Assembly: GCA_963751275.1 (NCBI GenBank)
Contig: CAVVTZ010000009.1
Location: 96,001 to 160,000 of the forward strand
Origin: an uncultured Gemmatimonadaceae bacterium
GTDB lineage: Bacteria > Gemmatimonadota > Gemmatimonadetes > Gemmatimonadales > Gemmatimonadaceae
Reading direction: 5' to 3'
Length of the DNA stretch: 64,000 bases
Positions within the stretch are counted from its first letter, which is position 1. Each line of letters opens with the position of its first letter. Shown here piece after piece: positions 3,559 through 45,799 of the stretch. Below the pieces are notes generated by a model that was not told the origin of the DNA, did not search any database, and saw only the letters and a list, made by a program, of their open reading frames with translations. The translations under genes were made by a program, and so were the position numbers.

Positions 3559-5569
3559 CTAGTTGCCAGAAGCGCTCCTGAGCCGTTCGCCAAGCGCCGC
3601 ACCGTCGATGACCGGCGCGTCACACGCGTAATTCCGGCACACGTAGGCGGTCGCGCGGCCGCCGGCCATCGGGCGGTCCTTCAAGAGCGCGGCCACCGGC
3701 GGTTCGCTCGGCGCCGCCGCGGCGAGCACGAGTGATGGCAGGTAATGCTTCGCGACCTCGGCGAGCAGCGCGCGCGTGTCCTCGCGCGACGGGTCGCCGG
3801 CGATCGCGATCTCGATCGCGCCATCGAGCGACAGCTCCGCCGCGCCCAGCAGGTGCCCGAACGCCGGCCCGTAACGCGCGATCGGCTCCGCGAGCGTGTC
3901 GAGCACCCACGCGGCGCGCCGGCGGTACTCGCGGCGGTCGTCCACCTCGGCGATCCGCAGCACCAGCTCCACCGCGAGCAATGTGCCCGAGGGAACAGCG
4001 TTGTCGGTCACCTCGCGCGGGCGCGTGATCAGCCGTTCGGCGTCGCGCGCGGTGTCGAAGAACGCGCCCGCCGGCTCGTCCCAGAACCACTCGTTCATCG
4101 ACTCCGCGAGTTCGCGCGCGCGGGCGAGCCACGCCGGATCGAGGGTGAGTTCGTACACCGCCAGCGCGGCGAGGCCCAGCGCTGCATGGTCCTCGAGGAA
4201 GCCTCCGATCGCGGTGACGGCGGCGGTGCGCGTGCGCATCGCGCGGCCGTCGCGCACCGAATGCTCGAAGAGGAACTCCCCGTTGCGCACGGCGAGTTCG
4301 CGGTAATCGGCGCGGCCGAAGATGCGCGCGCAGTCTGCGACCGCGCGCAGCATGAGCCCGTTCCACGCGGCGAGCACCTTCTCGTCGCGGCCCGGGCGCA
4401 CGCGCTTCGCGCGCGCGGCGAGCAGCGCGGCGCGTGCGCGCGCCACGATCTCCGGCGGCGCCGGCGGGCCGGCGACGAAGAGGATGTTCGCGCCTTCGAA
4501 GTTCCCGCCGGCGGTCACTCCCCAGTGCGCCTTCATGACGGCGGCGTCGGCGCCGAGGATGGCGTCGATCTCGCCTTCGCTCCAGACGTAGAACTTCCCT
4601 TCGTGTCCTTCGCTGTCGGCGTCGAGGCTCGAATAGAAGCCGCCCTCGGCGGAGAGCATCTCGCGCGCCGCCCAGTCGACGGTGCCTTCGGCGGCGCGGC
4701 GGAATGCATCGTCGCCGGTGGCTTGCCAGAGGTGGGCGCCGAGGCGGGCGAAGAGGGCGTTGTCGTAGAGCATCTTCTCGAAGTGCGGCACGAGCCAGAT
4801 GGCGTCCACCGTGTAGCGGTGGATGCCGCCGCCGAGTTGGTCCGTGATGCCGCCGCGGGCCATCGCGAGGAAGGAGGTCGCGGGCAATGTCGAGGGCGTG
4901 CACGTCGCCGGTGCGGCGCCAGCGGCGGAGCGCGGCGTCGAGCGACATCGTCTGCGGGAATTTCGGCGCGCCTTCGAAGCCGCCGTGCTTGGGGTCGTAG
5001 CGTTCGGCGATCGAGGTCCACGCGCGGTCGAGCGTGGCGGCGCTGAGCGGGCCGGTGGAGCGGGCGGGGTCGGCGGCGTGGGTGTAGAGATCGCGCACGC
5101 GCTGGGTGGTGGCATCCACATCGCCGCGGCGTTCGCGGTAGGCGTCGGACACCGAGCGGAGCACGCGCGTGAAGCTCGGCATGCCGTGGCGGTCCTCGGG
5201 CGGGTAGTAGGTGCCGCCGAAGAAGGGAACGCCATCGGGCGTGAGGAAGACCGTCATCGGCCAGCCGCCCTGCCCGGTCATCGCCTGCACGGCGGTCATG
5301 TAGATCGCGTCGAGGTCGGGGCGCTCCTCGCGGTCGACCTTGATGTTGATGAAGCGTTCGTTCATGAGCGCGGCGGTCGCTTCGTTCTCGAAGGACTCGT
5401 GCGCCATGACGTGGCACCAGTGGCAGCTGCTGTAGCCAATGCTCAGCAATATCGGTCGGTCGGTCTCCCTGGCGCGCGCGAGCGTCTCCGCGGACCATTC
5501 GTTCCAGTCAACGGGGTTCTCCGCGTGTTGGCGCAAATAAGGGCTGCTGCTACTCCCAAGCTTGTTCAT
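3559..5569 (-). CDS. Thioredoxin-domain protein YyaL/SSP411 (DUF255), frameshift near 4875
   Basis: MNKL..SPYLRQHAENPVDW, CHWCHVM, GGWP in the 3620..5569 frame; VPHFEKMLYDNA and DEKVLAAWNG in the 3559..5235 frame. Confidence 0.9.
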
Positions 5570-6545: not shown

Positions 6546-7640
6546 GTGATCGCCCCGCTCAGCAATGTGCTCGATGCGTTCTCGCTGCTGTCGGTGCCGC
6601 AGCTGATCGCACTCACGGTCACGCTGATCGCGTACTACTCGCTCTGGCGATGGAGACGCGCGCGGAGCCGCGGCACGACGCGCTGGAGCGAATTCTGCGC
6701 GGCCAGCCGAGTGTTCGTCGTGTACCTCCTGCTCGTCGCGATGTCGGCGGTGCTGCCGCGTCCCATGGCCGCGCTGCGCGTGACGGATCCGGACGCGGTC
6801 ATCTTCGACGTGCACAGTCACACGAACTACTCGCACGATGCGAGCCATACCTTCACGGTGCAGGCGAACCGCGACTGGCATCGCGATGCGGGATTCGACG
6901 TGGCGTACATCACCGACCACCGCTGCTTCGACGGCGCAGCCGAGGGACTGCGCGGGAATCCGAAGCGCGCGGGCGATGGCACGGTGCTGCTGAGCGGCGT
7001 CGAGCTGCAAGGCGATGAGCAGCATCAGGTGGTCTTGGAGCCGCCCGATGCCATGGTGCCGAAGGGTTTCCTGGAAACGTGGTGCGTGCGCGCCGGAGCG
7101 GGCCGCGTTCCCGCGCGGCCGCCCGTTCGGGTGCAGACGATACCGGAAGATCTCTCGAAGATGCGCGTCGCCTCGCCGGCGATGCCGAACGGCGTGACCG
7201 CGATCGAGATCTCCGACGGCGCGCCGCGCGGTCTCGCGCAGGGGGATCGCGACGACAAGAAGCTCTGGGATCTCGCCTCGGTCAACCATCTCACGCGTGG
7301 TCGCCGGTTCGAACAATCACGGTTGGGGACGCACCGCGGTCGCCTGGAATGTCGTGCGCATCCCGGGATGGCGGTCGATGAGTCCCGATTCGCTCGGTCG
7401 AGCGATCGAGGATCGGCTCCGGTCCCGGCAGGTGAATGCCGTGCAGGTGGTCGAGCGGCGCCGATTCGCTTCACCGGAGCAATTCGATACCTCGCCATCG
7501 CGGCGTACGCGTTCATGCCGTTGATCTTCACGGCCATGGTGCTGCCTTCACGTCCCTGGCCGAGTGGCTCTCATGGTTCGCGTGGCTCGCGGCGGTCGTG
7601 CTCATCGCGAAGTTCGCGCGCCGCCGCCGGCCACGCGTGA
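6546..7640 (+). CDS. Membrane-anchored PHP-domain metallophosphoesterase, frameshifted near 7295 and in the C-terminus
   Basis: DVHSHTNYSHD, ITDH, GVE; GSNNHG continues in the 7297..7524 frame. Start and end uncertain. Confidence 0.65.
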   Translation: MIAPLSNVLDAFSLLSVPQLIALTVTLIAYYSLWRWRRARSRGTTRWSEFCAASRVFVVYLLLVAMSAVLPRPMAALRVTDPDAVIFDVHSHTNYSHDASHTFTVQANRDWHRDAGFDVAYITDHRCFDGAAEGLRGNPKRAGDGTVLLSGVELQGDEQHQVVLEPPDAMVPKGFLETWCVRAGAGRVPARPPVRVQTIPEDLSKMRVASPAMPNGVTAIEISDGAPRGLAQGDRDDKKLWDLASVNHLTRGRRFEQSRLGTHRGRLECRAHPGMAVDESRFARSSDRGSAPVPAGECRAGGRAAPIRFTGAIRYLAIAAYAFMPLIFTAMVLPSRPWPSGSHGSRGSRRSCSSRSSRAAAGHA

Positions 7641-9151
7641 CCGGCCACAACGCCCCGCGTCCCGTACTCACCCGCGCCATCGCGATCGCGCTGGGCGCCG
7701 CGGGGCTCCGCCTCGCAATGGCGGCGGTGATCACGCCGTTCCCCGACGAGACGTACTACTGGGAATGGTCGCGCCGGCTCGCCGGCGGATTCTTCGACCA
7801 TCCGCCGGGGATCGCCATCGCGATCCGCGCGGGCACGGCGCTCTTCGGCGACACGCCGTTCGGCATCCGCGTCGTACCCGTGCTGCTCGGACTCATCGCG
7901 GTGCTCTGCACGATCGAACTGGCGCGCCGCCTCGCCGGCGACGACGGCGCGCTCCGCGTCTCGATCGTGCTCGCCTGCCTCCCCCTCGCGAGCGCCGGAT
8001 TGGTGCTCGCGACGCCCGACGCACCGCTGCTCGCCTTCAGCGCGCTCGCGCTCCTGTGCATCGAGCGAGCGGTGGACGCCGCCGCCACGCCGCGCGCCGC
8101 GCTCGCGTGGTGGGCGCTCGCGGGACTCGCCTGCGGCGCGGCGATGGCATCGAAGTACACGGGCGTGCTGCTCCCCGCGTTCACGCTGGTCGCCATCGTC
8201 GCGATCCCGTCGCTCCGCCGCCAGCTCGCCATGCCCGGCCCGTACATCGCCGTCGCGCTCGCGTCGCTGGTGATGATCCCAGTGCTCTCGTGGAACACGC
8301 ACCACGACTGGATCTCCTTCCGCTTCCAGCTCGCCCACGGACTTGGGCAGGTCCGCGGCACCGGCATCAAACGCGAAGGCGATCTCCTGGGCGGCCAGCT
8401 CGGCCTCGTCACGCCGATCTTCTTCGTCATGATGGTGATCGCGGTGACCCGTTCGCTCCGAACGAGGAACGAGGCACGCGGAACGCTCTTCGCGGTCATC
8501 GCGACCCTCACATTTGCATTCTTCGTCTACAGCGCCTGGCGCCGCCCCGCCGAAGCGAACTGGCCCGCGCCGGCGTACATCCCGGCGCTGGCGCTGCTCG
8601 CAGCGTTCCCGGTCTCGCGCGCATGGAAGAACTGGCTCACTGCCGGCTGCGTACTCGGCGCGATCCTCGTGACCGCGACATACGTGCAGGCCGTCGCGCC
8701 GGTATTCCCGATCGCCGCACGCAAGGATCCCATGGCGCGCGGCGCCGGATTCCGCGAACTCGCCGCGCGCGTCACCACGCTTCGCGATTCCGTTTCACAC
8801 GATGGCAAAGCGGTGCTCGTCGCCGCGCAGAAGTATCAGGACGCCTCGGAACTCGCCTGGTGGATGCCCGGACACCCGGATATCCTCTCGATCAACACCG
8901 GCTACCGCGCGAATCAATACGATCTCTGGCCGCAGCTGCGCGACCGCGCGCAGCCCGGGAGCGCGCTCATCGTCGTCGGCCCGGCGGATGGCGCCGATTC
9001 CGCGATCGCAATGAACCCCGGGCTCACCGCTCTCGCGCCGGTGTATACGCGCGTGACGCTGCTCGGTATCTTCGAACTCGGCCGCGGCGGCTCGGTGCGG
9101 GAACGCAAACGCATCTGGCTCCTCGATCCTCTCACCGGTCCACTGCCATGA
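7637..9151 (+). CDS. ArnT/GT39-like membrane glycosyltransferase
   Basis: DETYYWEWSRRL, FDHPP, TPDAPL, SKYT; many TMs. Confidence 0.88.
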   Translation: MTGHNAPRPVLTRAIAIALGAAGLRLAMAAVITPFPDETYYWEWSRRLAGGFFDHPPGIAIAIRAGTALFGDTPFGIRVVPVLLGLIAVLCTIELARRLAGDDGALRVSIVLACLPLASAGLVLATPDAPLLAFSALALLCIERAVDAAATPRAALAWWALAGLACGAAMASKYTGVLLPAFTLVAIVAIPSLRRQLAMPGPYIAVALASLVMIPVLSWNTHHDWISFRFQLAHGLGQVRGTGIKREGDLLGGQLGLVTPIFFVMMVIAVTRSLRTRNEARGTLFAVIATLTFAFFVYSAWRRPAEANWPAPAYIPALALLAAFPVSRAWKNWLTAGCVLGAILVTATYVQAVAPVFPIAARKDPMARGAGFRELAARVTTLRDSVSHDGKAVLVAAQKYQDASELAWWMPGHPDILSINTGYRANQYDLWPQLRDRAQPGSALIVVGPADGADSAIAMNPGLTALAPVYTRVTLLGIFELGRGGSVRERKRIWLLDPLTGPLP

Positions 9152-10527
9152 CGTCACCACTCGCCCCCGACCTCGAGCAGTTCCTCGCCAAGAACGACAA
9201 GAAAGCGCACGAGGAACTGTTCGACTTCCTGCGCATGCCGAGTGTGAGCGCGCGTTCGGAACACACCCCCGACATCCGGAAGTGCGCCGCCTGGGTGCAG
9301 GCGGCGCTCAAGACCGCCGGGATGAAGGCGGAGATCATGGAGACCGGCGGGCATCCCGTGGTGCTGGGCGAGTGGCGCGGGGCGGGGGAGAAGGCGCCCA
9401 CCGTGCTGGTGTACGGGCACTACGACGTGCAGCCGGCCGAGCCGCTGGACCTGTGGACGACGCCGCCCTTCGAACCGGTGATCCGCGATGGCCGCATCTA
9501 CGCGCGCGGCTCGGTGGACGACAAGGGGCAGCTGTTCCTGCACATCAAGGCGATCCAGGCGCACCTGAGCGCGCGCGGCAAGCTGCCGGTGAACATGATC
9601 GTGCTCGCGGAGGGCGAAGAGGAGGTGGGGAGCGAGAATCTCGAGAAATTCATCGAGAAGCATTCCGAGCGGCTCGCGTGCGACTACGTGGTGATCTCGG
9701 ATTCGTCAATGTTCGCGCCGGGATTGCCGAGCATCCTGAGTTCGCTGCGCGGCCTCGCGTATTTCCAGATCGATGTGCAGGCGGCGGCGGGCGATCTGCA
9801 TTCGGGCAGCTATGGCGGCGCCGTGGCGAATCCGGCCACGGTGCTGGCGCGGATCATCGCCAGCTTCCATGACGCGAACGGCCACGTCGCGATCCCGGGT
9901 TTCTACGACAAAGTGCGCGAATGGGATGCCGCATCGCGCGAGGCGCTGCGCAAGCTGCCCTTCAGCGACAAGACTTTCCTGGAAGAAGCCACCGCGCCGG
10001 CCGCCGTTGGTGAGAAGGGCTATTCGACGCTCGAGCGCGTATGGGCACGGCCGACGTGCGAGGTGAACGGCCTGCTGAGCGGGTACACGGGCGAGGGCGC
10101 GAAGACGGTGCTGCCCGCGAAGGCGATGGCGAAGGTGAGCTGCCGCCTCGTGCCCGATCAGTCACCGACCGAGATCGAGCAATTGATGAAGGCGCATATC
10201 AAGGCCGTGACCCCGCCGGGTGTGACGGTGACGGTGGAGCATTTGCATGGCGGCCGTCCCTGGCGCGCGGAGCTCTCGGGGCCATTGTTCGACGCCGCGC
10301 GGCGCGCCTTGAAGACGGCGTTCGCGAAGGACCCGGTGATCGTGGGGGAGGGAGGGTCGATTCCCGTTGTCGGCGATTTCCAACGCGTGCTGGGGGCGCC
10401 TGTTCTGCTAGTGGGATTTGGATTGCCGGGGGAGAATGCGCATGCGCCGAATGAGTGGATGAGTGATGTGAATTTTGTGAAGGGGATGCGTGCGATGGCG
10501 GCGTTGTGGGATGAATTGAAAGGCTGA
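9148..10527 (+). CDS. M20 family dipeptidase
   Basis: YGHYDVQP, ARGSVDDKGQ, EGEEE, DLHSG, AHAPNE. Confidence 0.93.
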   Translation: MTSPLAPDLEQFLAKNDKKAHEELFDFLRMPSVSARSEHTPDIRKCAAWVQAALKTAGMKAEIMETGGHPVVLGEWRGAGEKAPTVLVYGHYDVQPAEPLDLWTTPPFEPVIRDGRIYARGSVDDKGQLFLHIKAIQAHLSARGKLPVNMIVLAEGEEEVGSENLEKFIEKHSERLACDYVVISDSSMFAPGLPSILSSLRGLAYFQIDVQAAAGDLHSGSYGGAVANPATVLARIIASFHDANGHVAIPGFYDKVREWDAASREALRKLPFSDKTFLEEATAPAAVGEKGYSTLERVWARPTCEVNGLLSGYTGEGAKTVLPAKAMAKVSCRLVPDQSPTEIEQLMKAHIKAVTPPGVTVTVEHLHGGRPWRAELSGPLFDAARRALKTAFAKDPVIVGEGGSIPVVGDFQRVLGAPVLLVGFGLPGENAHAPNEWMSDVNFVKGMRAMAALWDELKG

Positions 10528-10538
10528 ACTACAGTCCA

Positions 10539-10785
10539 TCACCTGCACGCTTCACGTTGCAGTAAACAGCAAACAGTCCCCAGAATGGCACGGCAGTCGA
10601 CAGTCAACAGTCAACAGCTCACAGCAATCCGATCACGAACGACGCGGGCCTCTCGATCCTGAATCGGAATCGAGAGGCCCGCTCGCCCGCTGTAATGTTT
10701 TCTGTGAACTGTTGACTGTTGACTGTCGACTGGCAGTCACTTGTGACTGTTTGCTGTTTACTGCAAAGTCAGGCGTGCAAGTGAC
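10539..10785. repeat. Long inverted repeat with ACAGTCA heptamer arrays and central 14-bp hairpin; possible bidirectional terminator
   Basis: gcagtaaacagcaaacagt / actgtttgctgtttactgc; cagtcgacagtcaacagtcaacag / ctgttgactgttgactgtcgactg; centre gcgggcctctcgat...atcgagaggcccgc; lies between convergent genes. Confidence 0.85.
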
Positions 10786-10805
10786 AGTAGTAAACAGTTC
10801 AGCGG

Positions 10806-12359
10806 CTAGAGCCCAGAGAGCAGCGCGTCGTTATTCGTCGTCGCCCCGATCCGCTTGATCAACCACTCCATCGCCGCCTGCGGCGGCATCTGCCCCAGCC
10901 CGCGGCGCAATGTATACACCGCCTCGATCTGGTCCGCCTTGAACAATTTCTCTTCCTTCCGCGTGCCCGACGTCGCGATATCGATCGCCGGATAGATCCG
11001 CTTCTCCGCAAGCGAGCGGTCGAGCTTGATCTCGCAATTGCCCGTTCCCTTGAACTCCTCGAAGATCACGTCGTCCATCCGCGAGCCCGTCTCCACGAGC
11101 GCGGTGGCGATGATCGTCAATGATCCGCCGCCGTTCTCGGGGGCGACGCAGCGCGCCGAACCGAAGAACGCCTTGGGTTTCGCCATCGCGGTCGCATCCA
11201 ATCCGCCGCTCAGCGTGCGTCCCGTGCCGCGCTCCACGGAATTGTACGCGCGCGCCATGCGGGTGAGCGAATCGAGCACGATCACGACATCCCGCCCGCT
11301 CTCCACCAGGCGCCGCGCGCGCTCGAGCACCATCTCGGTGACCTCGGTGTGCCGCTCCGCGGGCTGGTCGAAGCTCGACGCGATCACTTCGCCGCGTCCC
11401 CACGAGATCATTTCGCTCACTTCTTCGGGCCGCTCATCGACGAGCAGCACGAGCAGCGCCGCCTCGGGGTGATTGAGCGCCACGCCCTCCGTGATCGCCT
11501 GCAGCAGCATCGTCTTGCCGGCGCGCGCGGGCGCCACGATCAGCGCGCGCTGGCCGTAGCCAATGGGCGCGATGAGATCGATCGCGCGGCGCGTGAGCTC
11601 CGGTCCCCCCTTCGCGGGGCGGCCCGTCTCGAGGGTCAGTTTGCGGTCGGGATACGAGGCGATGAGCGCGGTGAAATCGGTGCGCTTGAGCGCGAGCGCC
11701 GGATCGGCCTCGTTGATCGTGAGGATCTCAGCGACGACGGTACGGCCCCGATGATCGTGCCCCGTGCTCGCTTCCACCAGATCGCCGCGGCGCAGCGCGA
11801 ACTGCCGCACCAAGTGCAGCGGGACGAACGCGTCGGCCGGCGTCGGGAGGTAACTCTCGGCGGCGCGGCGAATGTACCCGCCGTCGCGGCCCGCATCGAA
11901 CCATCCGAGCGTGGCGCCATCCGGGACGATCGGCACCGGCGGGCCGGAAGGCACGTGCTGCTGTTGCTGATTCTGATTCTGCTGATGATCCGGGCGGGGT
12001 CCGCCGCGTCCGCGGCCGCGCCGCCCGCGGCGGCCATTGTTCCGCTGTTCATTGTGCTGCTGCGGCCGGTGCTGGTGCCGCGGATTCTGATTCCCGCCGC
12101 TGTTCATCTCGCCGGCGCCGCTCCCGCCTCCGCCGCTTCCGCTGTCCGAAGGCATCGCCCCCTCGCCGCCGCCCGTCGCATCGGAAGCGCCTTGCTCCGT
12201 CCCGACGCTGAATGAGCCGCCGCCGCTCTCGCCGGAGGACGTAGGCTGGTCGTCGCGATAGGGACTCGATTCCATGTTCGGATCACGGTTGGGGTCACGG
12301 TTCGGGCGGTGCGGTCTATTCCCGCGACCGCGCCGGGGCGGACGTCTGCGTTCGTTCAT
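10806..12359 (-). CDS. rho: Transcription termination factor Rho with long low-complexity N-terminus
   Basis: APARAGKT, DERPEEV, LDSLTRMARAYN, ETGSRMDDVIFEEFKGTGN. Confidence 0.95.
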   Translation of the reverse strand: MNERRRPPRRGRGNRPHRPNRDPNRDPNMESSPYRDDQPTSSGESGGGSFSVGTEQGASDATGGGEGAMPSDSGSGGGGSGAGEMNSGGNQNPRHQHRPQQHNEQRNNGRRGRRGRGRGGPRPDHQQNQNQQQQHVPSGPPVPIVPDGATLGWFDAGRDGGYIRRAAESYLPTPADAFVPLHLVRQFALRRGDLVEASTGHDHRGRTVVAEILTINEADPALALKRTDFTALIASYPDRKLTLETGRPAKGGPELTRRAIDLIAPIGYGQRALIVAPARAGKTMLLQAITEGVALNHPEAALLVLLVDERPEEVSEMISWGRGEVIASSFDQPAERHTEVTEMVLERARRLVESGRDVVIVLDSLTRMARAYNSVERGTGRTLSGGLDATAMAKPKAFFGSARCVAPENGGGSLTIIATALVETGSRMDDVIFEEFKGTGNCEIKLDRSLAEKRIYPAIDIATSGTRKEEKLFKADQIEAVYTLRRGLGQMPPQAAMEWLIKRIGATTNNDALLSGL

Positions 12360-12727
12360 GCGGTGTGGCGTGATGGAAGGTGTGCGTCGCGCAGCGCCGC
12401 GCCGTCCCGATTGGACGGATGCCGGCCGCGCCTCGTGCTTCAATGTGTTGCTGCGATATGGTGCACTCTCTAGGAACAACGGGCCCGCGGGGCGCGGACA
12501 CTGCACGCGCGATCCGGGTTGCGACCAGCCATGATGCGTTGCGCGGCGCGAACGACGCGACCGCCAAACGGCACCGCCTGGGCCCTGCGATCTGACTTGG
12601 GATGGCCGACGGTCACCCGCTCCGCGGCCCCCTCAATTCTCGCCAATCCACCGCGATTCCGCAACACCCACCCTGACTACAGACCTGCCCGAACAAGCGC
12701 CGCGGTCGATCCTACAGACCGGCAGTA

Positions 12728-12918
12728 GCACCCCGAACTCCGTCCTTCGTCCCCCGAACTCCGCCATTGGCGATTGACGTGTGGTACCAGCTACGGCGTT
12801 GCTGGCATGGTGTAAACGCCATGCCAAGTACGTTTGAGCCGTTGCCACACCTTAGTGGCCAATAGCGGAGTTCGGGGGCCAACAACGTTGTTCGGGGTTC
12901 GACTAACGTTGTTCGGAC
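12728..12918. repeat. Inverted-repeat element, family A-related
   Basis: ccccgaactccgccattggc / gccaatagcggagttcgggg arms; central hairpin tggcatgg...ccatgcca. Confidence 0.75.
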
Positions 12919-12926
12919 CGCGCCCG

Positions 12927-13232: not shown

Positions 13233-13832
13233 ATGGGTTCCCCTAAGATACCGGGTGGCACCGCCGCCGAGCTCGCGAGCGCCGTGGAGAGCTATCGCGA
13301 GACGAACGATTTCTCCGTGCTCCTCGACCGGCTGCTCGCCATCTCGGTGGCCGCCGATCTCGAAGAACTGATCGCCGCCGTCGAGCCATACCGGACGATC
13401 CCGGAGATCGCCGGCCCGGTGTACGAGCGCGTGGTGGCGGAGCGTCCGCACGATGCCCGCGCGCTCGTGACGCTCGCCAACTCGTACTGGCTGAGCGGCC
13501 GCGGCGCCGAGGCCACCGGCGAACTCGCGCAGCGCGCGATGGCCGCCGACCCGGAGAATCGTGCGGCGTGGCATCTCTGGGCGCTCACCGAACCCGAGCC
13601 GCGCGCGCGCATGACGCGATGGAAGCAGGTGAGCGAGCGCTTTCCGGCCGACGACCTCGCGCGCGCGACGCTCGCCGACGCCGCCGCGAGCGTGGCCGGC
13701 GCCGAGCGGGACCGCGAGGCGCTGCAGCTGGCGATCCGGAGCTACGACGCACTGCTCAAGACGGCGGCTCTCCCGGAGCAGAAGGCCGCCCTTGAGAGTG
13801 CGCTAACTACGTTGCGCGCCTGGAATCTCTGA
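13233..13832 (+). CDS. TPR-like helical hypothetical protein
   Basis: ARALVTLANSYWLSGR...AMAADPEN TPR-like repeat. Confidence 0.7.
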   Translation: MGSPKIPGGTAAELASAVESYRETNDFSVLLDRLLAISVAADLEELIAAVEPYRTIPEIAGPVYERVVAERPHDARALVTLANSYWLSGRGAEATGELAQRAMAADPENRAAWHLWALTEPEPRARMTRWKQVSERFPADDLARATLADAAASVAGAERDREALQLAIRSYDALLKTAALPEQKAALESALTTLRAWNL

Positions 13833-14709: not shown

Positions 14710-14765
14710 TCGCACCCTCCGAACCGTTGGCGACAGCCGTCAGCCGTCAGTCTGCCGTTAGGCTC

Positions 14766-15167
14766 TTAGGCTCTCGCTCCCTTCTTCTTCCCCGCGAGCC
14801 CCGTCAGCACTCCCAACAGCTCCGTCAGATCGAACGGCTTCGCGATCACCGGGCATCCGCACGCGTCGATCAGGTCCATCGCGTGATCGCTCGAGTCGCC
14901 GGTGGTGAACACGGTGCACGCGCGCAGCTGCGGCTGCAGGCTCGCCGCCAGCTCGAAGAGCACGTCGCCGCGCATGTCCGGCACCCGCAGGTCCACCACC
15001 ATGAAGTCGAAGTGTTCGGTGCGCAACAGGGCGAGCGCCACCTCGCCGCTTTCGACGGCCCGCACGTCGTATCCGTTCCGCGTGAACGCGATGGTCAATG
15101 CGCGGCAGATGGACGGTTCATCGTCCACCACGAGGATCCGCGCATGCTCATTGAACAGCCTCATCAT
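14766..15167 (-). CDS. Single-domain response regulator (CheY-like)
   Basis: ILVVDDE, VVDLRVP, TG, KPF. Confidence 0.88.
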   Translation of the reverse strand: MMRLFNEHARILVVDDEPSICRALTIAFTRNGYDVRAVESGEVALALLRTEHFDFMVVDLRVPDMRGDVLFELAASLQPQLRACTVFTTGDSSDHAMDLIDACGCPVIAKPFDLTELLGVLTGLAGKKKGARA

Positions 15168-16267: not shown

Positions 16268-17509
16268 CTACACCTTGATGCCGGCGAGCTCGCGGATCTT
16301 CCGCACGCCCGCCGCCGCTTCTTCCACCATCGGCGTCGTCGCGGCCGGAACGGCCCCCTCGATGGCGATGCCGTCCTTCAAGTCTCCCAGCGCCTGCTCC
16401 GCGTGGAAGACCACCTGGCTCGATTGATGCTGGTGCGCGATCTCGAGCGCGCGCTCCAGTGCCACGCGCGCCTGCTCCGGCCGGTCGAACATCCGGAAGC
16501 CCTGCCCTGAATAGAAGAAGTACCAGGCCGAGAGCACCGGAGGCAGCGCGGCCGTGGAGAGCTCGCGGCGATACTGCTCGAACACCGGCTCGAAGTGATC
16601 CGCGCCGGCGAGCTCCATGAGGTTGATCGTCGCCTGCCAGCGCGTGAACTGCTCCTGCGCCGTGGCCGCGAGCACGAGGTTCGCGTCGCGCGCCGCGGTG
16701 TGCAGCCCGATCTCGAAGAAGCTGGCGGCGAGGTCGGCGAGCACTCGGTCGCGCGAATTGTCGGTGCGCACATCCTGCAGCGCGAGATACTGCATGGCGA
16801 TCGCCGCATCGTAGTCGCCGCGGCGGTGCGCGGTGTGCGCGCGGTCCTGCAGCGCCATCGCGCGGAGCTCCGTCATCCCGAGCTGCTCGGCGTCCAGGAT
16901 CGTCTGGTCGAGGATCGATTCCGCCTCAGGCAGATTGCCACGATCGGTGAGCACGTTCGCCTCGCCGATGCGCGCCTTGAGCATGCTCATGATGTCGCCC
17001 GTGAGCGCGGCGACTTCGCCGGCGCTGCCATACGCGTCCCACGCGTCGTCCCAGCGCGCGAGCGTGCGCGAGCAGGCGGCGATCATGAGGTTCGCGTTGA
17101 TCACGGTGTCCGCGTCGTTGAGCGGGTGGGCGTGCGCGAGCACCGTGCGGTACACATCGGTCGCGAGCGCCCATTCGCCATCCAGCTGCAGCGCGCGCGC
17201 GTACGCCATGAGGCGCGGCGTGACGAAGCGGACACTCGCGAAGGCGCCGGAGGGATCCATCGCCTCGAGGACCTTCAAGAGGAGCGCGCGGCTCGTGCTC
17301 CCATGGTCCATCGCTTCGACCGCTTCGCGCACCGCGCGCATCCCCCACGCATCGGGCGCCGCGACGTGCGGCCCTTCCATGACCCAGGCATCGACGAGTC
17401 GCAGCGTGACGAGTCCCGCGCTCATCGCGCGGAAGGTGGGGCTGCCCGCTTCGAGGTGGGAGATGCGCTCGAAGTACGGGAGATGAGAGAGCGAGGGGCC
17501 GGTGGTCAT
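16268..17509 (-). CDS. Cytoplasmic TPR-like protein, about 413 aa
   Basis: Helical repeats: GEANVLTDRGNLPEAESIL, DRAHTAHRRGDYDAAIA, QARVALERALEIA; no signal peptide or evident HTH. Confidence 0.8.
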   Translation of the reverse strand: MTTGPSLSHLPYFERISHLEAGSPTFRAMSAGLVTLRLVDAWVMEGPHVAAPDAWGMRAVREAVEAMDHGSTSRALLLKVLEAMDPSGAFASVRFVTPRLMAYARALQLDGEWALATDVYRTVLAHAHPLNDADTVINANLMIAACSRTLARWDDAWDAYGSAGEVAALTGDIMSMLKARIGEANVLTDRGNLPEAESILDQTILDAEQLGMTELRAMALQDRAHTAHRRGDYDAAIAMQYLALQDVRTDNSRDRVLADLAASFFEIGLHTAARDANLVLAATAQEQFTRWQATINLMELAGADHFEPVFEQYRRELSTAALPPVLSAWYFFYSGQGFRMFDRPEQARVALERALEIAHQHQSSQVVFHAEQALGDLKDGIAIEGAVPAATTPMVEEAAAGVRKIRELAGIKV

Positions 17510-17516: not shown

Positions 17517-17581
17517 AAGTTCAGTCCGCGCGAAATGGGCTTCAAGCGTGAATCAGGACAATCAGCGGACGAATTAGGACA
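17517..17581 (-). promoter_or_regulatory. Putative promoter of the TPR gene with TGTCC direct repeats 21 bp apart
   Basis: Sense strand TGTCCTAATT (17581), TGTCCTGATT (17560), TTGAAG-N17-GAACTT. Confidence 0.6.
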
Positions 17582-17603
17582 TTCTTAACTGCCGAACTGC
17601 GAC

Positions 17604-17902
17604 AGTGGCCACCCGAACGCCGTCATTGGTCACCCGAACGCCATGAGGCGTGAGGCGTGCGTCGAACTGACTGTGAGGCGTGACACGAAGCCCGAAGGCC
17701 GTGAGGCGAACCCCGAATCACGTACGTGGCGCCCCAAACTCCGTACGTCGTGAGTGTACTCACGGACTTCGGGGTGCGAGTCACGGCCTTCGGGTCGCGA
17801 CTCGCGGAGTTAGGGATTCGAGTCACGCCCCACAATCAGTTCGGCGCACGCCTCACGCCTCACGGCGTTCGGGGTACCAATGACGGAGTTTGGGTCGCTA
17901 CT
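17604..17902. repeat. Long imperfect palindrome, family A copy 2
   Basis: Shares tgaggcgtgaggcgtgcgtcgaac and a central cgtgagtgtactcacg with 1389-1717. Confidence 0.85.
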
Positions 17903-17913
17903 CTCGCCCCTTC

Positions 17914-18842
17914 CTAGCGAGCGTGCGTCGGACCCGCGGACACATACCGATCCCCTTTCTTATCCAGCTTGTCGATCTCCTTCTCCAGTTCGTTCGCCCA
18001 CACTTCGACCCGCGGGATGGAATGCGGATCGAACTTGGGATCGAACGGGCTGCGCGCCGGGCCGCCGGCTACTTCGAGTACGGCAGCGTAGTCGTACGCG
18101 AGCACCTTGCCGGTCTTCGGATTCTTCCACTCGCCCTTCCACGCGAGCGAGCGCTCCTTGGGCCACGCCCCGAGTGGGAGGCAGAAGGTGAGCACCTTGT
18201 TGCCGGGAACGGCGGAATCGATCGCGAGCTGGCCGCGCGCGATCTGCTCCTGTACGACGGCGTCGGAGTACTTGCTGAGCTGCGCGTGCCAGAGCGTGTG
18301 ATTGCAGAGCTCGAAGCCGTGTTCATAGAGCCAGCGCACTTTCTTGAAGCGCCACGCGGTCTTCTGGCCGTCGACCCCGGTGTAGCCGAAGAAATTGTGG
18401 CCGGCGTTCGCGCCGCTCAGGAGGCAGAAGGTGGCCTTGTTCCCCCAGTCGGGGTGCGTCTTCTGGAAGTCGATCCAAATGCCGATCGCGCTCGTGGAGT
18501 CGATGATGAGCTCGCCGTTGCGTTCGATGTAGCGGAATTGCGAGGGCGAGGCATCGTCGAAGGTGAAGACGACGGGCGACAATCCCGCCGGCAGGTCGAT
18601 CTTCTTCGCGAGCAGATCGGAGACGTTCACCGGCCGGTAGCCGCGCTCGTACATGAATTCGAGATCGCGCCGGAAATGCTCGCGCGACACGGTGAAGCGG
18701 GCTTCGTAGGAACCGATCACGTGGTACTCTAATATCGGAATCCTTCCCATCTCGTTCGGGGGAGATGCTGAACGGCAGGCTGGTGGCTGTCGGCTGTCGC
18801 GAACACGACAAGCATCAACGCGGCGATGGACTTCCAGATCAC
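17914..18842 (-). CDS. Secreted polysaccharide deacetylase (CE4/NodB-like), frameshift in G5 run near 18760
   Basis: PNEMGRIPILEYH, TFDDA, NHTLWH; signal peptide from GTG 18842 is in another frame. Confidence 0.82.
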
Positions 18843-24361: not shown

Positions 24362-24870
24362 GTTCATCGCGCGGGTCCGGCGGGCGGCTTGCTCCATCCT
24401 GGCGGCGGAGAGCTCGAACCGCTTCGAGCCTCGGGGGTTCATCGCGCGGGTCCGGCGGGCGGCGCACTCCCTCGCAGCGGCCGACGCTCAAACCGCTTCG
24501 AGCCTCGCGCACACTACGCGCGAGTCTCTCGCTTTTCGCTGAGGCCGCGCTCGGGAGCGCGCCGCCCGCCTGGGGATCGAGAACGGCGATCCGCTGGCGG
24601 GACGATCTCACCGCGCGCTCACATTGTCGCCAGGCGCGCAAGCCCGTGTTCCTCTGCTGCACCGAGCGCGCGGGGGGCGCGCTCGACTTGAAAGCGCGCG
24701 CGCTTTGGCTCCTTGGGTGGGTCGTGATCGACGCAGGGAGCGGGGCCGCTGCCAGCGCGGCCGCCTCAGCGAAAAGCGAGAGACTCGCGCGCAGTTCGCG
24801 CGAGGCTCGAAGCGGTTTGAGCGTCGGCGGCCAAGCGGCGGCGGTCCCGCGACCGGCGCCACGATGGCAA
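24362..24870. repeat. GC-rich palindromic intergenic element, family B copy 1
   Basis: Arms of about 72 bp (24481-24552 / 24755-24827); near-identical to 26355-26765. Confidence 0.88.
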
Positions 24871-24942
24871 CCACTCACGCGCGCCGCGTGACTAAGTTTC
24901 GCGAGCATCACCCGCATCATCCTCCCGAACTCCGAGATCCCC

Positions 24943-26350
24943 ATGCGCCTGTACGTTTCTCTTGCCGGCGTAGTCGGCATCGCGCTCATCGGTTCCGCGC
25001 TCGGCGCACAATCCGTCGTCGTGAACGGCGCCCAGGCCGTCGCGGCCGATTCGGCGCTGCGATCGCTGGAGAAGGAGGGATTCTCCGGCGTCGTCCTCGT
25101 GGTCAACAAGGGTACGGTGGTACTGCGGAAGGGATACGGCCTCGCGGTGCGCGAGCGGAGAGTGCCGTTCAGGCCGGGCACCGTCGTGCAGATCGGCTCC
25201 AACACCAAGGATTTCACCGCCGTCGCGATCCTGCAGCTGCAGGAGCAGGGGAAGCTGCGGGTGACCGATTCACTGGGCCACTTCTTTCCGCAGGCGCCGG
25301 CGGACAAGCGCGGGATCACGCTCATGCAGCTCATGAAGCATTCGTCGGGCTTCGAGCCGAATCTCGCCGGCGGCGATTTCCGGGCGCTCGAGCGCGACCA
25401 GTTCCTGGCGCTCGCCTTCGCGTCCAAACTCCTCTATACGCCGGGGCAGGGCGAGCGGTACTCGAATCTGGGGTACTCCATGCTGGCGGCGGTGATCGAA
25501 GTGGTCACCGGCGATTCGTACGGCACGTTCCTCCAGAGGAACATTCTGGCAGCCGCTGCACATGGAGCGGACGGGGCTGCTCTTCCCGAAGTACGACACT
25601 GCGGCGATGGCGCACGGATACAACGGGTCGCAGGACGAAGGGACGATGCTCGACAAGCCCCACGCGAAGGACGGTCCGTACTGGAACCTGCGCGGCAACG
25701 GCGGCTACCTGTCGACCGTGGACGAGATGTACCACTTCTACGATGTGCTCTTCCACACCGACTCGCTGCTGCGTCCGGGGGAGCGCGACCTCAAGTTCCC
25801 GCCGAACCAGCCGATGATCCTGGCCGGGTCGGACATGATCAATTTCTTCCTGTACAATCTCGAGCCGATGCAGGGGATCACGATGATCCTCGCGTCGAAC
25901 GCGAGCGATTTCCCGGCGCCGCGTGCGCGCGACGCGATCGCGCCGATCTTCGGCCTGCCGGTGCCGAACGGGCGGCGCATTGGGAAGGGCGGCGGCGCAC
26001 CCGTGGCGGGCGCCGCAGCGATCGCGCTGCCCGACACGCCAGCGGGACGGCGGGCCCAGGAGTACGTCGCGATGTTCAATCGCGGCGACTCGGCGGCGGC
26101 CGTGGCGTTCATCGGGTCAGCGATGGCGCCGAATCCCGAAGACAAACGGACCCCGGAGCAGCGCGCCGGCGCCATGCGCACCATGCGCGGCCGCCTCGGC
26201 GCGATGACGCCGACCGCGGTCGTGTCGCAGAGTCCCACGGAGATCGTGTTCACCGTGCGCGCGGAGAACGAGCCGTCGGCGACGATCACGATGAACATCG
26301 AGGCGAGCGCGCCATATCGGATCACCGGGCTGCGGCTCATGGTGGAGTAG
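24943..26350 (+). CDS. Secreted serine hydrolase (beta-lactamase/PBP-like), frameshift near 25553
   Basis: Signal peptide; GSNTK (SxxK), YSN; continues in the 25562..26350 frame. Confidence 0.85.
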
Positions 26351-26354
26351 GCCG

Positions 26355-26765
26355 AGTTCATCGCGCGGGTCCGGCGGGCGGCGGGCTCCCTCGCAGCGGC
26401 CGACGCTCGAACCGCTTCGAGCCTCGCGGCTGAACGGCGCCGCGAGTCTCTCGCTTCTCGCTGAGGCCGCGCTCTGGAGCCCGCCGCCCGCCTGGGGATC
26501 GTGAACTGCGTTCCGCCGGCGGGCCGATCTTCCTTCGCGCTCACATTTTGGGCGGGCGCGCAAGCCCGTCTCTCTCTGCTGGAAGCAGCGATCACGCGCG
26601 CGAGCTCCCCGAGCAAGTCTTGATCAATGCAGGGAGCGGGGCCGCCGCCAGCGCGGCCGCCTCAGCGAAAAGCGAGAGACTCGCGCGTCGTTCGCGCGAG
26701 GCTCGAAGCGGTTTGAGCGTCGGCGGCCAAGCGGCGGCGGTCCCGCGACCGGCGACGCGATGGCA
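26355..26765. repeat. Family B palindromic element copy 2
   Basis: Colinear homology with 24437-24870. Confidence 0.88.
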
Positions 26766-27640: not shown

Positions 27641-27745
27641 CGCCGCCTCAGCGAGAAGCGAGAGATTCGCGGCGCCGTTCAGCCGCGAAGCTCGAAGCGG
27701 TTCGAGCGTCGGCGGCTGTGCCGGGGGTGGCGGGCGCGACGGACC
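27641..27745. repeat. Family B element, right arm only
   Basis: gccgcctcagcgagaagcgagaga...ctcgaagcggttcgagcgtcggcggc. Confidence 0.8.
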
Positions 27746-35707: not shown

Positions 35708-35811
35708 GCGCGGCACGGTCTGAGAACGGGCGCATCCTAGGTACCTAAGTGCCGGAGATTGGGGGACTCGCAATGTACCGCCCACGCGGAGCCGGACGCT
35801 AGGAGACGAGC

Positions 35812-35935
35812 CGTTCGGGAGTCGGGAGTCGGGAATCAACGGCCCCGAACAAAGCCCCCTTGCCTCGCCCCTACGGGGAGGCATCTTCGTTCTCCCGGGC
35901 GTCGCCGTCGATTCCCGACTCCCGACTCCCGAACG
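35812..35935. repeat. Inverted TCGGGA-heptamer arrays (32-bp IR, 1 mismatch) around a hairpin in the divergent promoter region
   Basis: cgttcgggagtcgggagtcgggaatcaacggc / gccgtcgattcccgactcccgactcccgaacg. Confidence 0.85.
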
Positions 35936-35939
35936 CGGA

Positions 35940-36543: not shown

Positions 36544-37630
36544 ATGAACGCCACACGGACACTCCACGACCTCGGCCAGAGTCTCTGGCTCGACAATATC
36601 ACGCGCGGGCTGCTCTCGAGCGGCACGCTGAAGCGCTACATCGACGAACTCTCGGTGACGGGACTCACGTCCAATCCGACGATCTTCGATCTCGCGCTCA
36701 AGGGCAGCACCGACTACGACGCCGACATTCTCGAAGAAGCTGAAGCAGGGCAAGTCGGGCGAGTCACTCTTCTTCGAGCTGGCGATCGACGATCTCACGC
36801 GCGCGGCCGATCTCTTCCGCCCGGTGCACGACAAGACCGCCGGGGTGGACGGTTGGGTCTCGCTCGAGGTGTCGCCGCTGCTGGCGTACGACACGAAGAC
36901 CACGCTCGCGATGGCGAAGAGCCTGCACGCGAGCGCCGGCCGCCCGAATCTCTTCATCAAGATCCCCGGCACGAAGGAGGGATTGCCGGCCATCGAGGAA
37001 GCGACCTTCGCGGGCGTGCCGATCAACGTCACGCTGCTCTTCTCGCGCGAGCAATACCTCGCGGCGGCGGAGGCCTATCTGCGCGGCATCGAGCGGCGCA
37101 TCGCGGCGGGGCTGTCGCCGAACGTCACGTCGGTGGCATCGGTGTTCATCAGCCGGTGGGACGCCGCGGTCGCCGCGAAGGTCCCGCCGGAGCTCGTGAA
37201 CAAGCTCGGCATCGCGATCAGCCGGCGCTGCTACAAGGCGTATCTCGATCTCATCCAGTCGCCGCGCTATCTCGCGGTGCTGAACGCCGGCGCGCGGCCG
37301 CAGCGGCTGCTGCTCGCGAGCACCGGCACGAAGGATCCCAAGGCGAGCGACGTGATGTACATCGAGGCGCTCGCCGCGCCGTTCACGGTGAACACGATCC
37401 CCGAGGCGACGCTCAAGGCGTTCGCCGACCACGGGAAACCGGGCGCGACGATGCCGCGCGACGGCGGCGACTGCGAGCAGGTGCTCGCCCAGTTCACGAA
37501 GGCCGGTGTGAACATCGATGAGGTGGCCGCGAAGCTGCAGAGCGACGGCGCCGCGTCGTTCGTGAAGTCATGGAACGAGTTGATGGCCGGACTCGAAGCC
37601 AAGAGCGCCACGCTCAAGAAGGCCGGCTGA
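36544..37630 (+). CDS. tal: Transaldolase, frameshift near 36733
   Basis: GQSLWLD, GLTSNPTIF, VSLEVSP, FIKIP, NVTLLFS. Confidence 0.93.
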
Positions 37631-39939: not shown

Positions 39940-41010
39940 ATGCAACTCGCGATGATCGGACTGGGCCGCATGGGCGCCAACATGGTGCGCCGGCTCACCA
40001 AGGGCGGACACGACTGCGTCGTCTACGACCGCTCGCCGGAAGCGGTGAAGGATCTCGCGAAGGGCAAGATCGCGGGCGCGGACTCGCTCGAGGATCTCGT
40101 GAAGAAGCTGCGCAAGCCGCGCACGGTGTGGCTCATGGTGCCGGCGGCCGTCGTGGACCACAGCATCGCCGATCTCGCGCCGCTGCTCGCGAGCGGCGAC
40201 ACGATCATTGACGGCGGGAATTCCTACTACGTGGATGACATCCGTCGCGCGGAGACGCTCGCCAAGAAAGGCATCCACTACGTGGACGTGGGCACGAGCG
40301 GCGGCGTATGGGGGCTCAAGCGCGGCTATTGCATGATGATCGGCGGCGAACCGAAGATCGTGAAGCGCCTCGATCCCGTCTTCGCCACGCTCGCGCCGGG
40401 CATCGGCAGGATCGAACGCACGCCCGGCCGCGAGAAGATCGGCGGCACCGCGGAGAACGGCTATCTCCACTGCGGGCCCAACGGCGCCGGCCACTTCGTG
40501 AAGATGGTGCACAACGGCATCGAGTACGGGCTCATGGCCGCCTATGCCGAGGGGCTCGGCGTGCTCGCCGAGGCGAACATCGGCAAGAAGACGCACGAGG
40601 TGGACGCCGAGACGACGCCGCTCCGCGACCCGGAGCACTACCAGTACGACATCAACCTGCGCGACGTGGCCGAAGTGTGGCGGCGCGGCAGCGTGATATC
40701 GTCGTGGCTGCTGGACCTCACGGCGGCGGCGTTGGTGAAGGATCAGAAGCTCGGCGACTTCGGCGGACGCGTCTCCGATTCCGGCGAAGGGCGCTGGACG
40801 ATCAAGGCGTCGATCGACGAAGGCGTGCCCACGCCGGTGCTCACCGCGGCGCTGTACGAGCGATTCAGCTCGCGTGGGCAGGCCGACTATCAGAACCGGC
40901 TGCTCTCCGCGATGCGGTTCGCGTTCGGCGGCCACCTCGAGAAGCCGGCGGATGGCGCGGCGCCGCAAGCGGCCGCGCCCAAGGCGCCGGCGAAGAAGAA
41001 GAAAGCATGA
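39940..41010 (+). CDS. gnd: 6-phosphogluconate dehydrogenase (short type)
   Basis: GLGRMG, DGGNS, KMVHNGIEY, FGGH. Confidence 0.95.
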   Translation: MQLAMIGLGRMGANMVRRLTKGGHDCVVYDRSPEAVKDLAKGKIAGADSLEDLVKKLRKPRTVWLMVPAAVVDHSIADLAPLLASGDTIIDGGNSYYVDDIRRAETLAKKGIHYVDVGTSGGVWGLKRGYCMMIGGEPKIVKRLDPVFATLAPGIGRIERTPGREKIGGTAENGYLHCGPNGAGHFVKMVHNGIEYGLMAAYAEGLGVLAEANIGKKTHEVDAETTPLRDPEHYQYDINLRDVAEVWRRGSVISSWLLDLTAAALVKDQKLGDFGGRVSDSGEGRWTIKASIDEGVPTPVLTAALYERFSSRGQADYQNRLLSAMRFAFGGHLEKPADGAAPQAAAPKAPAKKKKA

Positions 41011-42396: not shown

Positions 42397-43088
42397 AGAT
42401 CGAGATCCTGCCCGACGCCATCGCGGTAGCGGTGCGCGCGGCGGAGATCATCGCCGACGATGCGCGCGCGGCGATCGGCGCGCGGGGAGCGTTCACCTTC
42501 GCGGTGAGCGGCGGGAACACGCCCTGGCAGATGCTGCGTGCGCTCGCGCAGCAGCCGGTGCCGTGGAGCGCGGTGCAGCTCTTCCAGGTGGATGAGCGGA
42601 TCGCGCCCGACGGCGACCCCGACCGCAACCTCACGCACATCCGTGAGACGCTGCTGGGCGCCGTGAACATCCCTCCGCAGAACGTGCACGCGATGCCGGT
42701 GAACGATCCTGATCCCGCCGCCGCGGCGGGGCGCTACGCGCACGAGATCGAGCGCACCGCGGGTGCGCCGCCGGTGTTCGATCTGGTGCATCTCGGCCTC
42801 GGGCCGGACGGCCACACCGCGTCGCTCGTGCCCGGCGATCCCGCGCTGTTCGTGACCAACAGCGAGGTCGCGCTCGCCGGCCCGTACATGGGACATTGCC
42901 GGATGACGCTCACCTATCCGGTGCTCGACGGCGCGCGCCGCGTGCTGTGGGTGGTGACGGGCGCGGAGAAGGCGCGCATGCTCTCGCTGCTGCGCGCCGG
43001 CGACCGCACGATCCCGGCGGGGCGCGTGAACGCGATGCACGCCACGCTCCTCGCGGACCGCGCCGCCGCGCTCACGCACGCGGGCTAG
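42393..43088 (+). CDS. pgl: 6-phosphogluconolactonase
   Basis: SGGNTP, DER, GLGPDGHTASL, RMTLT. Confidence 0.92.
   Translation: MKIEILPDAIAVAVRAAEIIADDARAAIGARGAFTFAVSGGNTPWQMLRALAQQPVPWSAVQLFQVDERIAPDGDPDRNLTHIRETLLGAVNIPPQNVHAMPVNDPDPAAAAGRYAHEIERTAGAPPVFDLVHLGLGPDGHTASLVPGDPALFVTNSEVALAGPYMGHCRMTLTYPVLDGARRVLWVVTGAEKARMLSLLRAGDRTIPAGRVNAMHATLLADRAAALTHAG

Positions 43089-43097: not shown

Positions 43098-45799
<2,702 letters not shown>

Follow-up and report, generated by a model that had tools for sequence, protein, structure and literature searches.

Why should the silent positions at the end of one bacterial gene be almost devoid of cytosine? The question is raised by a window of 64,000 nucleotides (nt) from an uncultured Gemmatimonadaceae bacterium (contig CAVVTZ010000009.1, positions 96,001 to 160,000; all coordinates below are those of the window), in which a single codon among the last 46 of an M20 peptidase gene ends in C. 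This tail adjoins a long palindrome that fills the gap between the gene and a convergent rho. We tentatively suggest, with distinctly less than even confidence, that the tail is an extreme case of a strand composition that is selected around terminator hairpins and tied to Rho-dependent termination. The locus comprises:

9148-10527, plus strand: intact M20/M25/M40 peptidase gene, called M20 below (Pfam PF01546, E = 4.2e-38; PF07687)
10387-10524, plus strand: tail of M20 almost free of C-ending codons, 46 codons with 1 ending in C (codon listing, segment score, shuffles)
10523-10805, no strand: stop-to-stop palindrome, one long hairpin (Tandem Repeats Finder (TRF), inverted repeats, RNA fold)
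10806-12506, minus strand: rho gene, convergent with M20 (Pfam PF07497, PF00006)

The M20 tail, its hairpin and the antisense RNA

The window has a G+C content of 68%, and 88% of the third codon positions in its genes are G or C, with C (C3) at 0.449 and G (G3) at 0.432 over 18,529 codons. The gene map was derived from codon statistics and then checked with Pfam on 56 proteins; 54 gene models entered the codon-window scan, four were dropped as doubtful in frame (6546-7640, a HisKA fragment, the GH15 head and the G6PD-PGL fusion), and genes of fewer than 150 codons were excluded from the tests of gene tails.

A preliminary description of this DNA had reported one C-ending codon among the last 40 of M20 (10405-10524), and that count is exact (third bases A5 C1 G24 T10). 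The T-ending pyrimidine codons that it had noticed there are also borne out: T closes every one of the 9 two-fold pyrimidine-ending codons among the last 46, and codons 1-413 have C3 at 156 of 413. TTG supplies 3 of the 6 Leu codons of the tail, against a background of about 8%. Only 9 of 16,423 windows of 40 codons (mean 18.2 C3) contain 0 or 1 C3, each of them in the M20 tail because the next lowest locus, the transketolase gene tkt, bottoms at 2. The maximal C3-depleted segment of M20 (10387-10521) scores 22.1; the window-wide null from 100 within-gene synonymous shuffles has a mean of 12.4, a 95th percentile of 17.3 and a maximum of 21.9. The tail is also the lowest-C 120-nt window on both strands (10% versus 34.0 ± 4.8%). 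Across 10 related loci (55,894 codons), the top depleted-segment score is 18.0, followed by 12.1.

What the tail avoids is C specifically, without a general drift towards A and T, because its two-fold pyrimidine sites read T9 C0 while its purine-ending two-fold codons are unchanged (G6 A2, compared with 57:12 in the gene remainder); general AT drift and relaxed codon bias were rejected on this ground. Four-fold sites read G17 A3 T3 C1. At codon positions 1 and 2, C amounts to 0.185, the lowest among 16 sequences (others 0.228-0.304). An imported patch, an assembly error or DNA damage would ignore codon positions, and replacement sites still hold C. The best DNA relatives found for the gene are Gemmatimonadota metagenome-assembled genomes, the top one with 73% protein identity. 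The tail protein aligns with 15 orthologues and holds the conserved GENAHAPxEW motif, and its amino-acid divergence relative to the gene body (ratio 0.94) falls within the range in orthologues (0.80-1.29); judged by these alignments, it is native and normally constrained.

The palindrome measures 281 nt and is built from CAGTCAA heptamers. Its left arm (10528-10643; CAGTCAA-type heptamers by TRF, C39 G22) and right arm (10683-10805) flank a central GC hairpin (10644-10682), and its stem begins 2 bases before the M20 stop codon and finishes 2 bases before that of rho. The constituent inverted repeats (I1, I2 and I9) are 87-94% complementary. Folded as RNA, 10380-10810 reaches -208.9 kcal/mol (z -9.3), a stability equalled in 0 of 100 shuffles. 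Beyond the long stem there is no T run. The sole hairpin-plus-T-run hit in 10000-11300 is an 8-pair stem within the right arm (10732-10751), and one hit is the chance level (0.9 ± 0.8 expected). Terminators of this kind are not enriched in the window either, with 6 against 8.3 ± 2.7 expected in one count and 10 against 9.2 ± 3.4 in another.

Several more mechanical relations between tail and palindrome were rejected. The tail is not a hidden heptamer array: 7-nt periodicity is absent (lag-7 autocorrelation z -0.9; 0.0 in the depleted block of tkt), and genuine arrays inside the genes for V-ATPase B, A and E reach 2.1 to 3.7 on the same statistic. Nor does it pair with the adjoining C/A-rich arm: of 200 shuffles, 196 are more structured than tail and left arm together. 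If the palindrome is extended into M20 and rho, one 24-nt pair comes into register, but a second codon-phase register equals the peak of the register scan (55 of 136), which is therefore an effect of third-position composition. A duplex between the tail and the rho flank (-95.6 kcal/mol) is no better than those of body segments (-96.1 ± 9.0) or shuffles. Elsewhere in the window there is no similar copy of the M20 tail or the tkt block (best E-values 0.2-0.5), the whole window gives 0 Rfam matches, and no sigma-70-like promoters were found near either block. No minus-strand open reading frame (ORF) of at least 100 amino acids overlaps 10387-10527, and an antisense gene was rejected.

The antisense RNA of the tail is C-rich and nearly unstructured. 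It has C61 and G18 in 141 nt, and its 37 YC dinucleotides (Y, pyrimidine) place it in the top 0.8% of windows. Within it, minus-strand RNA 10526-10449 (C34 G5) has a C/G ratio of 6.8, the maximum of 127,846 78-nt windows; the second highest value in the window, 4.5, belongs to the antisense of the tkt block. In the opposite direction the antisense of the rho tail is moderately skewed (C36 G23), and the last 60 codons of rho are mildly C3-poor and G3-rich (14 C and 39 G of 60). The minimum free energy of the antisense M20 tail is -12.1 kcal/mol, compared with -47.9 ± 8.4 for other antisense M20 segments (136 nt). The sense tail is less extreme, at -35.5 versus -54.4 ± 7.2 kcal/mol, or 2.6 standard deviations (sd) weaker than controls. 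Two other stretches of the window are strongly C-rich and G-poor: 12613-12690 (plus strand; C40 G11 in 78 nt), which is non-coding and lies upstream of rho and left of a palindrome, and 53420-53583 (plus strand), which is antisense to the head of gene 52622-53521, upstream of EF-G.

How might such a composition serve termination? Read 5' to 3' on either strand, the 90-140 nt or so ahead of the stem-loop would be G-rich and C-poor, and the stretch beyond it C-rich and G-poor. The palindrome would act as a stable stem-loop without a U tract that protects the RNA 3' end, and Rho would have to load on C-rich, G-poor, unstructured RNA just past the stem-loop and not ahead of it. For the transcript running in the rho direction, the loading site would then be the antisense of M20; the hairpin fills the gap from stop to stop, and a loading site would therefore be possible only in the antisense of the M20 coding tail. 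Every silent site there would be driven to G where the codon allows, and to T where the choice lies between C and T alone, leaving the protein unchanged. We infer both that Rho would use this antisense RNA and that selection, not mutation, would be the origin of the pattern.

The nearest precedent comes from Escherichia coli, in which, according to an available part of one study, Rho-dependent 3' ends lie just 3' of stable stem-loops without U tracts, with sites for Rho utilization (rut) directly downstream (Dar and Sorek 2018, PMC6061677). The present locus shares with these terminators the stable stem-loop without a U tract, the C-rich, G-poor, unstructured RNA directly 3' of it and a rho gene. 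It differs in that the stem-loop is a 281-nt heptamer-array palindrome and that Rho dependence is here a prediction; moreover, it is the antisense of a convergent coding tail that holds the candidate rut, which would therefore be written into synonymous sites. For Rho in Mycobacterium tuberculosis, the available part of the text (PMC13650167) offers only general statements.

Repeat arrays and neighbouring gene ends

The preliminary description had placed loss of C-ending codons beside heptamer arrays at several further loci. About 16 periodic palindromes occur in the window, with a unit of 7 or 9 nt that is specific to the locus and a plan that is common to all. Long imperfect palindromes fill the intergenic regions at 1377-1760, 2476-2688, 10523-10805, 12707-12926, 17546-17913, 35805-35939, 48480-48610, 55850-56045 and 57690-57880. 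Their arms consist of tandem 7-, 9- and 21-nt units that change from locus to locus (CCCGAAC-type, CAGTCAA, CATGATG, CGCGGATCG) around a central GC hairpin, and as DNA they fold at -0.19 to -0.42 kcal/mol per nt. Palindromes of like plan occur in the related loci L001, L003 and L010, nearly all of them at gene 3' ends (11 tails versus 1 head). Arrays of CATGATG-type 9-mers hold promoter-like TTGACA-16-CATGAT matches (9-10 of 12) at 48562-48589 (plus), 57701-57728 (plus) and 57844-57817 (minus); one is directed at rpiB-tkt, and the other two point to the inside of the palindrome that separates the beta-lactamase-like gene from V-ATPase D.

Intergenic repeats and palindromic units are familiar from the REP/BIME and cyanobacterial STRR families. 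In unit and placement the arrays recall the short intergenic tandem TAACTGA heptamers of Beggiatoaceae, Cyanobacteria and Bacteroidetes, as these appear in an available part of MacGregor 2015 (PMC4679880), and the units CGACTGA and CAGTCAA resemble TAACTGA or its complement. Those repeats lie mostly just upstream of start codons, whereas the present arrays lie mostly at gene 3' ends; compared with all three families, the present arrays have a locus-specific unit and inverted pairs around a GC hairpin. The available parts of the literature on these families contain no description that we found of an effect on neighbouring codon usage.

At tkt the reported drift (about 50930-51198) corresponds to a real block, displaced from the array:

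50911-51126, plus strand: second significant C3-depleted block, within the transketolase gene tkt, 72-288 nt before the stop (C3 6/72, score 23.4)
51205-51240, no strand: CGACTGA heptamer arm right after the tkt stop (TRF; inverted repeat I1)
51700-51730, no strand: CAGTCGT heptamer arm, partner of 51210-51236 (TRF; inverted repeat)

The 24 codons of tkt nearest the array are less affected (C3 7/24). Proteins 95% identical to the tkt product exist, and amino-acid identity to the nearest relative is 67/72 inside the block and 587/615 outside; the last 8 or so residues of Tkt differ from these 95%-identical relatives. Structure around the block is unexceptional (z +1.2). The two arms pair as I1 over 27 nt (51210-51236 with 51700-51726, 96% complementary), and between them lies a gene of the 23S-rRNA-IVP family (51317-51700; PF05635, E = 5.4e-32, Avd-like). 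A PF05635 gene between inverted arms (51205-51730) follows the stem-plus-ORF plan of rRNA intervening sequences, but stands 3' of tkt. The Avd-like gene suggested a diversity-generating retroelement, which was rejected: there is no reverse transcriptase domain in the 56 proteins and no template copy in the window. Just beyond, the neighbouring paralogues 51739-52656 and 52622-53521 (minus strand), without Pfam hits, each end in ...FHF, an ending typical of outer-membrane beta-barrel proteins, and are followed by a short array or hairpin.

Elsewhere the drift had been overstated. The rho 3' end (last 40 codons, C3 9/40; score 8.0), the end of 13233-13832 (last 40 codons, 13/40) and the yyaL 5' end (first 40 codons, 16/40) lean the same way, within the null. 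V-ATPase E near 63200 has C3 10/50, but C3 is 0.26 throughout that gene. V-ATPase B near 59300 (31/50) and V-ATPase A near 61200 (21/50) are undepleted in their true minus-strand frame, the plus strand appearing C-poor there because of arrays inside the genes (GACAGCC in sense). These in-gene arrays (59403-59418, 61084-61118 and 63280-63306 in B, A and E; GACAGCC and TTCGGGA in sense) look like in-frame insertions of array DNA; translated, they give brief runs of low complexity, PAGDSRQPTASS and ESGFGIRE among them. The observation is thus striking at M20, real at tkt and too widely drawn for the remaining loci.

To what extent, then, do arrays accompany low C3 in gene tails? Within the window, the 10 tails no more than 80 nt from an array have a tail-minus-middle C3 difference of -0.135, compared with -0.042 in 31 others (p=0.035; p=0.037 with a manual array list). 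Removal of M20 and tkt leaves p=0.15. Beside arrays, A3 and T3 gain at the expense of both C3 and G3, a change common to gene ends generally. The relatives supply a second sample, for which 14 Gemmatimonadota loci were tried; L002, L006, L009 and L013 were left out of gene calling (training failed), L004 and L007 contributed only the M20 tail, and L015 and L018-L080, from other phyla, were unused. Here 11 array-near tails lose C relative to 119 far tails (-0.096 versus -0.004, p=0.0067) and gain G (+0.082 versus -0.007, p=0.0045); the 11 stem from 4 loci, so that numbers are small, and the effect persists within array-bearing loci alone (p=0.013 to 0.04). Comparison with orthologues that lack the array points the same way: the array-adjacent window tail lies below every one of them in C3, for M20 (9/9), the 13233 gene (3/3) and the polysaccharide deacetylase gene (3/3). 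The proposed dependence on distance was recovered as well, with an effect limited to the last 30-45 codons. The link with arrays, including its distance dependence, is moderately supported: window, relatives and orthologues agree in direction, and the window tails other than M20 and tkt do not carry it by themselves. Two further elements of the window belong here:

17546-17913, no strand: periodic palindrome with mirrored skew on both flanks (deacetylase tail C3 0.25, TPR gene head C3 0.60)
14716-14765, no strand: short CAGCCGT/CAGTCTG array beside the response-regulator tail 14772-14831, score 7.8 (TRF, segment score)

Flanking the first, the stretches 17934-18011 (plus) and 17429-17506 (minus), in which C exceeds G, are among the 8 strongest in the window.

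Should a common cause be sought at all? M20 and tkt might be unrelated oddities, such as an imported patch or an embedded element, with the array link a by-product of transcription-unit ends. Only these two loci exceed the window-wide null, and window tails far from arrays are somewhat C3-poor too (28 of 39 genes, p=0.006; 0.386 in the last 20 codons versus 0.48 deep in genes). A relative even has a depleted block 5.6 kb from any array: L010 18060-18299, in a polysaccharide deacetylase orthologue, scores 18.0 over 80 codons, with C3 0.18 and T3 0.24 in a genome of about 96% GC3. Its identity to the closest relative is 0.64 inside and 0.79 outside, and these figures suggest that it was imported. 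The M20 and tkt blocks do not behave in this way, as their amino-acid identity inside equals that outside; their purine-ending two-fold codons are unchanged and a low-GC donor is therefore unlikely. Foreign import of the two patches was rejected on these grounds. The lack of a second copy, of an Rfam match and of 7-nt periodicity also speaks against an embedded element, and the replication of the array effect in relatives, inside array-bearing loci included, speaks against a mere by-product. We regard separate origins as improbable, the least probable of the explanations considered here.

Mutation or selection at silent sites

The preliminary description had attributed the loss of C to strand-biased mutagenesis, for example deamination of cytosine in single-stranded DNA. 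The relatives do not bear this out as a general cause: they show a shift from C to G in which T is not raised. At four-fold sites near arrays, C, G and T stand at 0.372, 0.557 and 0.023, compared with 0.452, 0.453 and 0.044 elsewhere (Fisher p=0.0017), and T-ending two-fold codons show no rise (0.118 versus 0.149). A gain of G and loss of C without a gain of T fits selection for antisense C-richness, not deamination. Once M20 and tkt are set aside, the window tails likewise show no change at their two-fold pyrimidine sites (T 0.254 versus 0.257).

The two extreme patches read differently. Pooled, they have T14 C2 at two-fold pyrimidine sites and G44 T11 A7 C3 at four-fold sites, and purine-ending two-fold codons are unchanged even within them. 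We compared the four-fold sites with a four-state equilibrium model of mutation and fixation fitted to the window background. A 100-fold rate of C to T predicts A 0.05, C 0.045, G 0.69 and T 0.22, close to the observed 0.11, 0.05, 0.68 and 0.17 (65 sites). A pure cost on C predicts G 0.85 and T 0.06. To the eye, M20 taken alone (T at 3 of 24) seems to agree with the cost model; tkt (T at 8 of 41) is a poorer match. Deamination is thus unsupported as a general cause and possible for the two extreme blocks.

These spectra count in favour of a mutational halo, in which a hairpin-prone palindrome would time and again leave one strand bare on either side, whether because RNA polymerase stalls or queues, because R-loops form or because resection follows cleavage of the hairpin, and C would be lost from the exposed sense strand at a much increased rate while purifying selection keeps the protein. 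The 100-fold model comes nearer to the two-patch spectrum than a cost on C alone, four-fold T (11/65) exceeds a background of about 3%, and the effect is gone beyond 30-45 codons. The skew is also mirrored across some elements whatever the gene orientation, as at 17546-17913. G clusters favour the initiation of R-loops, and one such cluster, GGGGGAGGGAGGG (10343-10355), lies just ahead of the G-rich M20 tail. Other observations are hard to reconcile with a halo: besides the spectra of relatives and of the other window tails, amino-acid divergence is not raised at M20 (the ratio of 0.94) or in the tkt block, and equally strong palindromes stand beside EF-G (tail C3 0.60), CydB (0.55) and the 1777 gene without effect. 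The tkt block is displaced from its array, whose arms are 463 nt apart, and hairpin extrusion there is therefore unlikely. A halo would further need a sustained rate rise of about 100-fold within 140-220 bp, with sharp edges. We consider it unlikely, although the second most probable of the explanations considered here. In its boldest form the palindromes would be local foci of strand-specific hypermutation, with loss of C raised about 100-fold over evolutionary time on the strand that enters the hairpin 5' to 3', and C erased from all silent sites within about 140 bp while selection keeps the protein; this we find about as unlikely.

Known strand asymmetries resemble this only in part. Single-strand deamination acts on the non-transcribed strand in E. 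coli. Gradients of C to T and A to G arise in the same way in mitochondrial genomes, according to an available part of the literature (PMC3269015); the likeness lies in strand-specific loss of C, strongest at third positions, with G and T enriched on one strand. Such gradients are genome-scale and modest, whereas the loss of C3 here is nearly total within a sharply bounded block of 140-220 bp, and relatives lack the gain of T. Human gene 3' ends show terminal GC skew and R-loops linked to termination, as an available part of Ginno et al. 2013 (PMC3787257) describes. Both have a non-template strand richer in G than in C towards the 3' ends of genes; the human case is eukaryotic, non-coding and downstream of poly(A) sites, with R-loops mapped, whereas the present one is a translated bacterial tail known from its sequence alone.

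If composition is selected around terminator hairpins, the layout should recur at other elements. Over 15 transcript-direction events at elements of the window, the mean of (C-G)/(C+G) moves from -0.152 in the 90 nt before to +0.105 after (paired p=0.011), with an effective n below 15 because 3 convergent pairs are counted twice as mirror images. That double counting is the first of several points that weigh against the proposal. In tandem pairs the tail is G-rich in 6 of 7 and the exit C-rich in 5 of 7, and G-rich tandem tails are beyond what a loading site for an antisense transcript could account for. The skew test over all three codon positions (90 nt, window) is not significant (p=0.34), and the window-wide array effect is lost without M20 and tkt. 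In relatives, convergent tails show no general skew (52 convergent versus 77 tandem, p=1.0), and the skew was accordingly rejected as something common to convergent tails across the phylum. Depletion is found in 0 of 16 Gemmatimonadota M20 orthologues (tail C3 0.30-0.61); the undepleted tails include those of L002 and L006, both with arrays downstream, and that of L014, in which M20 and rho are convergent too. A pure cost on C fits the pooled patches worse than mutation pressure does, and the tkt block adds its excess of four-fold T and its start 72 nt away from the array. For this organism, Rho dependence itself is a prediction from sequence.

Because the tandem entry is at least as clear as the exit, a version in which the sense tail is what matters, C-poor and holding Rho off, is equally open on this evidence. 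Selection would then act on the sense mRNA, where a C-poor, weakly structured stretch delays Rho until the protective stem-loop has been made, or keeps the stop-codon region open, and the antisense composition would be a by-product. G-rich tandem tails, where no convergent transcript is expected, agree with this, as do a sense tail 2.6 sd less structured than the gene body and the poor folding of tail plus left arm. Translating ribosomes, however, should screen a coding tail from Rho, the left arm just past the stop is itself C-rich (C39 G22), and the structural effect is far stronger on the antisense RNA; the weaknesses of generality are those just listed. We judge selection on the sense mRNA to be quite unlikely, and retain selected composition with an antisense loading site for Rho as our tentative explanation.

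Further repeats, split genes and significance

Two features of the window stand apart from these questions. A repeat of a different type, about 400 bp long and partly palindromic, has 2 copies (24362-24888 and 26356-26765; pieces 85-96% identical) and a third that is partial and inverted (27641-27718; 95% complementary over 78 nt). In at least 5 genes, Pfam domains are split between two frames (yyaL/DUF255, beta-lactamase-like, transaldolase, G6PD and an MGH1-like glycosidase; regions 3559-5569, 24943-26433, 36544-37630, 41007-43088 and 43748-45803), which indicates either assembly indel errors or pseudogenes; M20 and tkt are intact.

Under either the selective or the mutational reading, the M20 tail is a small and clean test object, with 46 codons, a conserved protein and one hairpin. 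If mutation proves to be the cause, the locus would be a rare natural case in which DNA structure concentrates strand-specific mutation on a scale of about 100 bp, and hypermutation at the palindromes would be the equivalent, naturally occurring in bacteria, of structure-targeted mutation clusters. If instead the composition is selected, terminators can override codon choice in adjacent genes, and the silent positions of each of two convergent genes would contain the Rho loading site of the other. Methods that take local anomalies of codon usage as signs of foreign DNA or relaxed selection would then call for caution, and Rho-dependent termination would be traceable from sequence alone in an uncultured, high-GC phylum.

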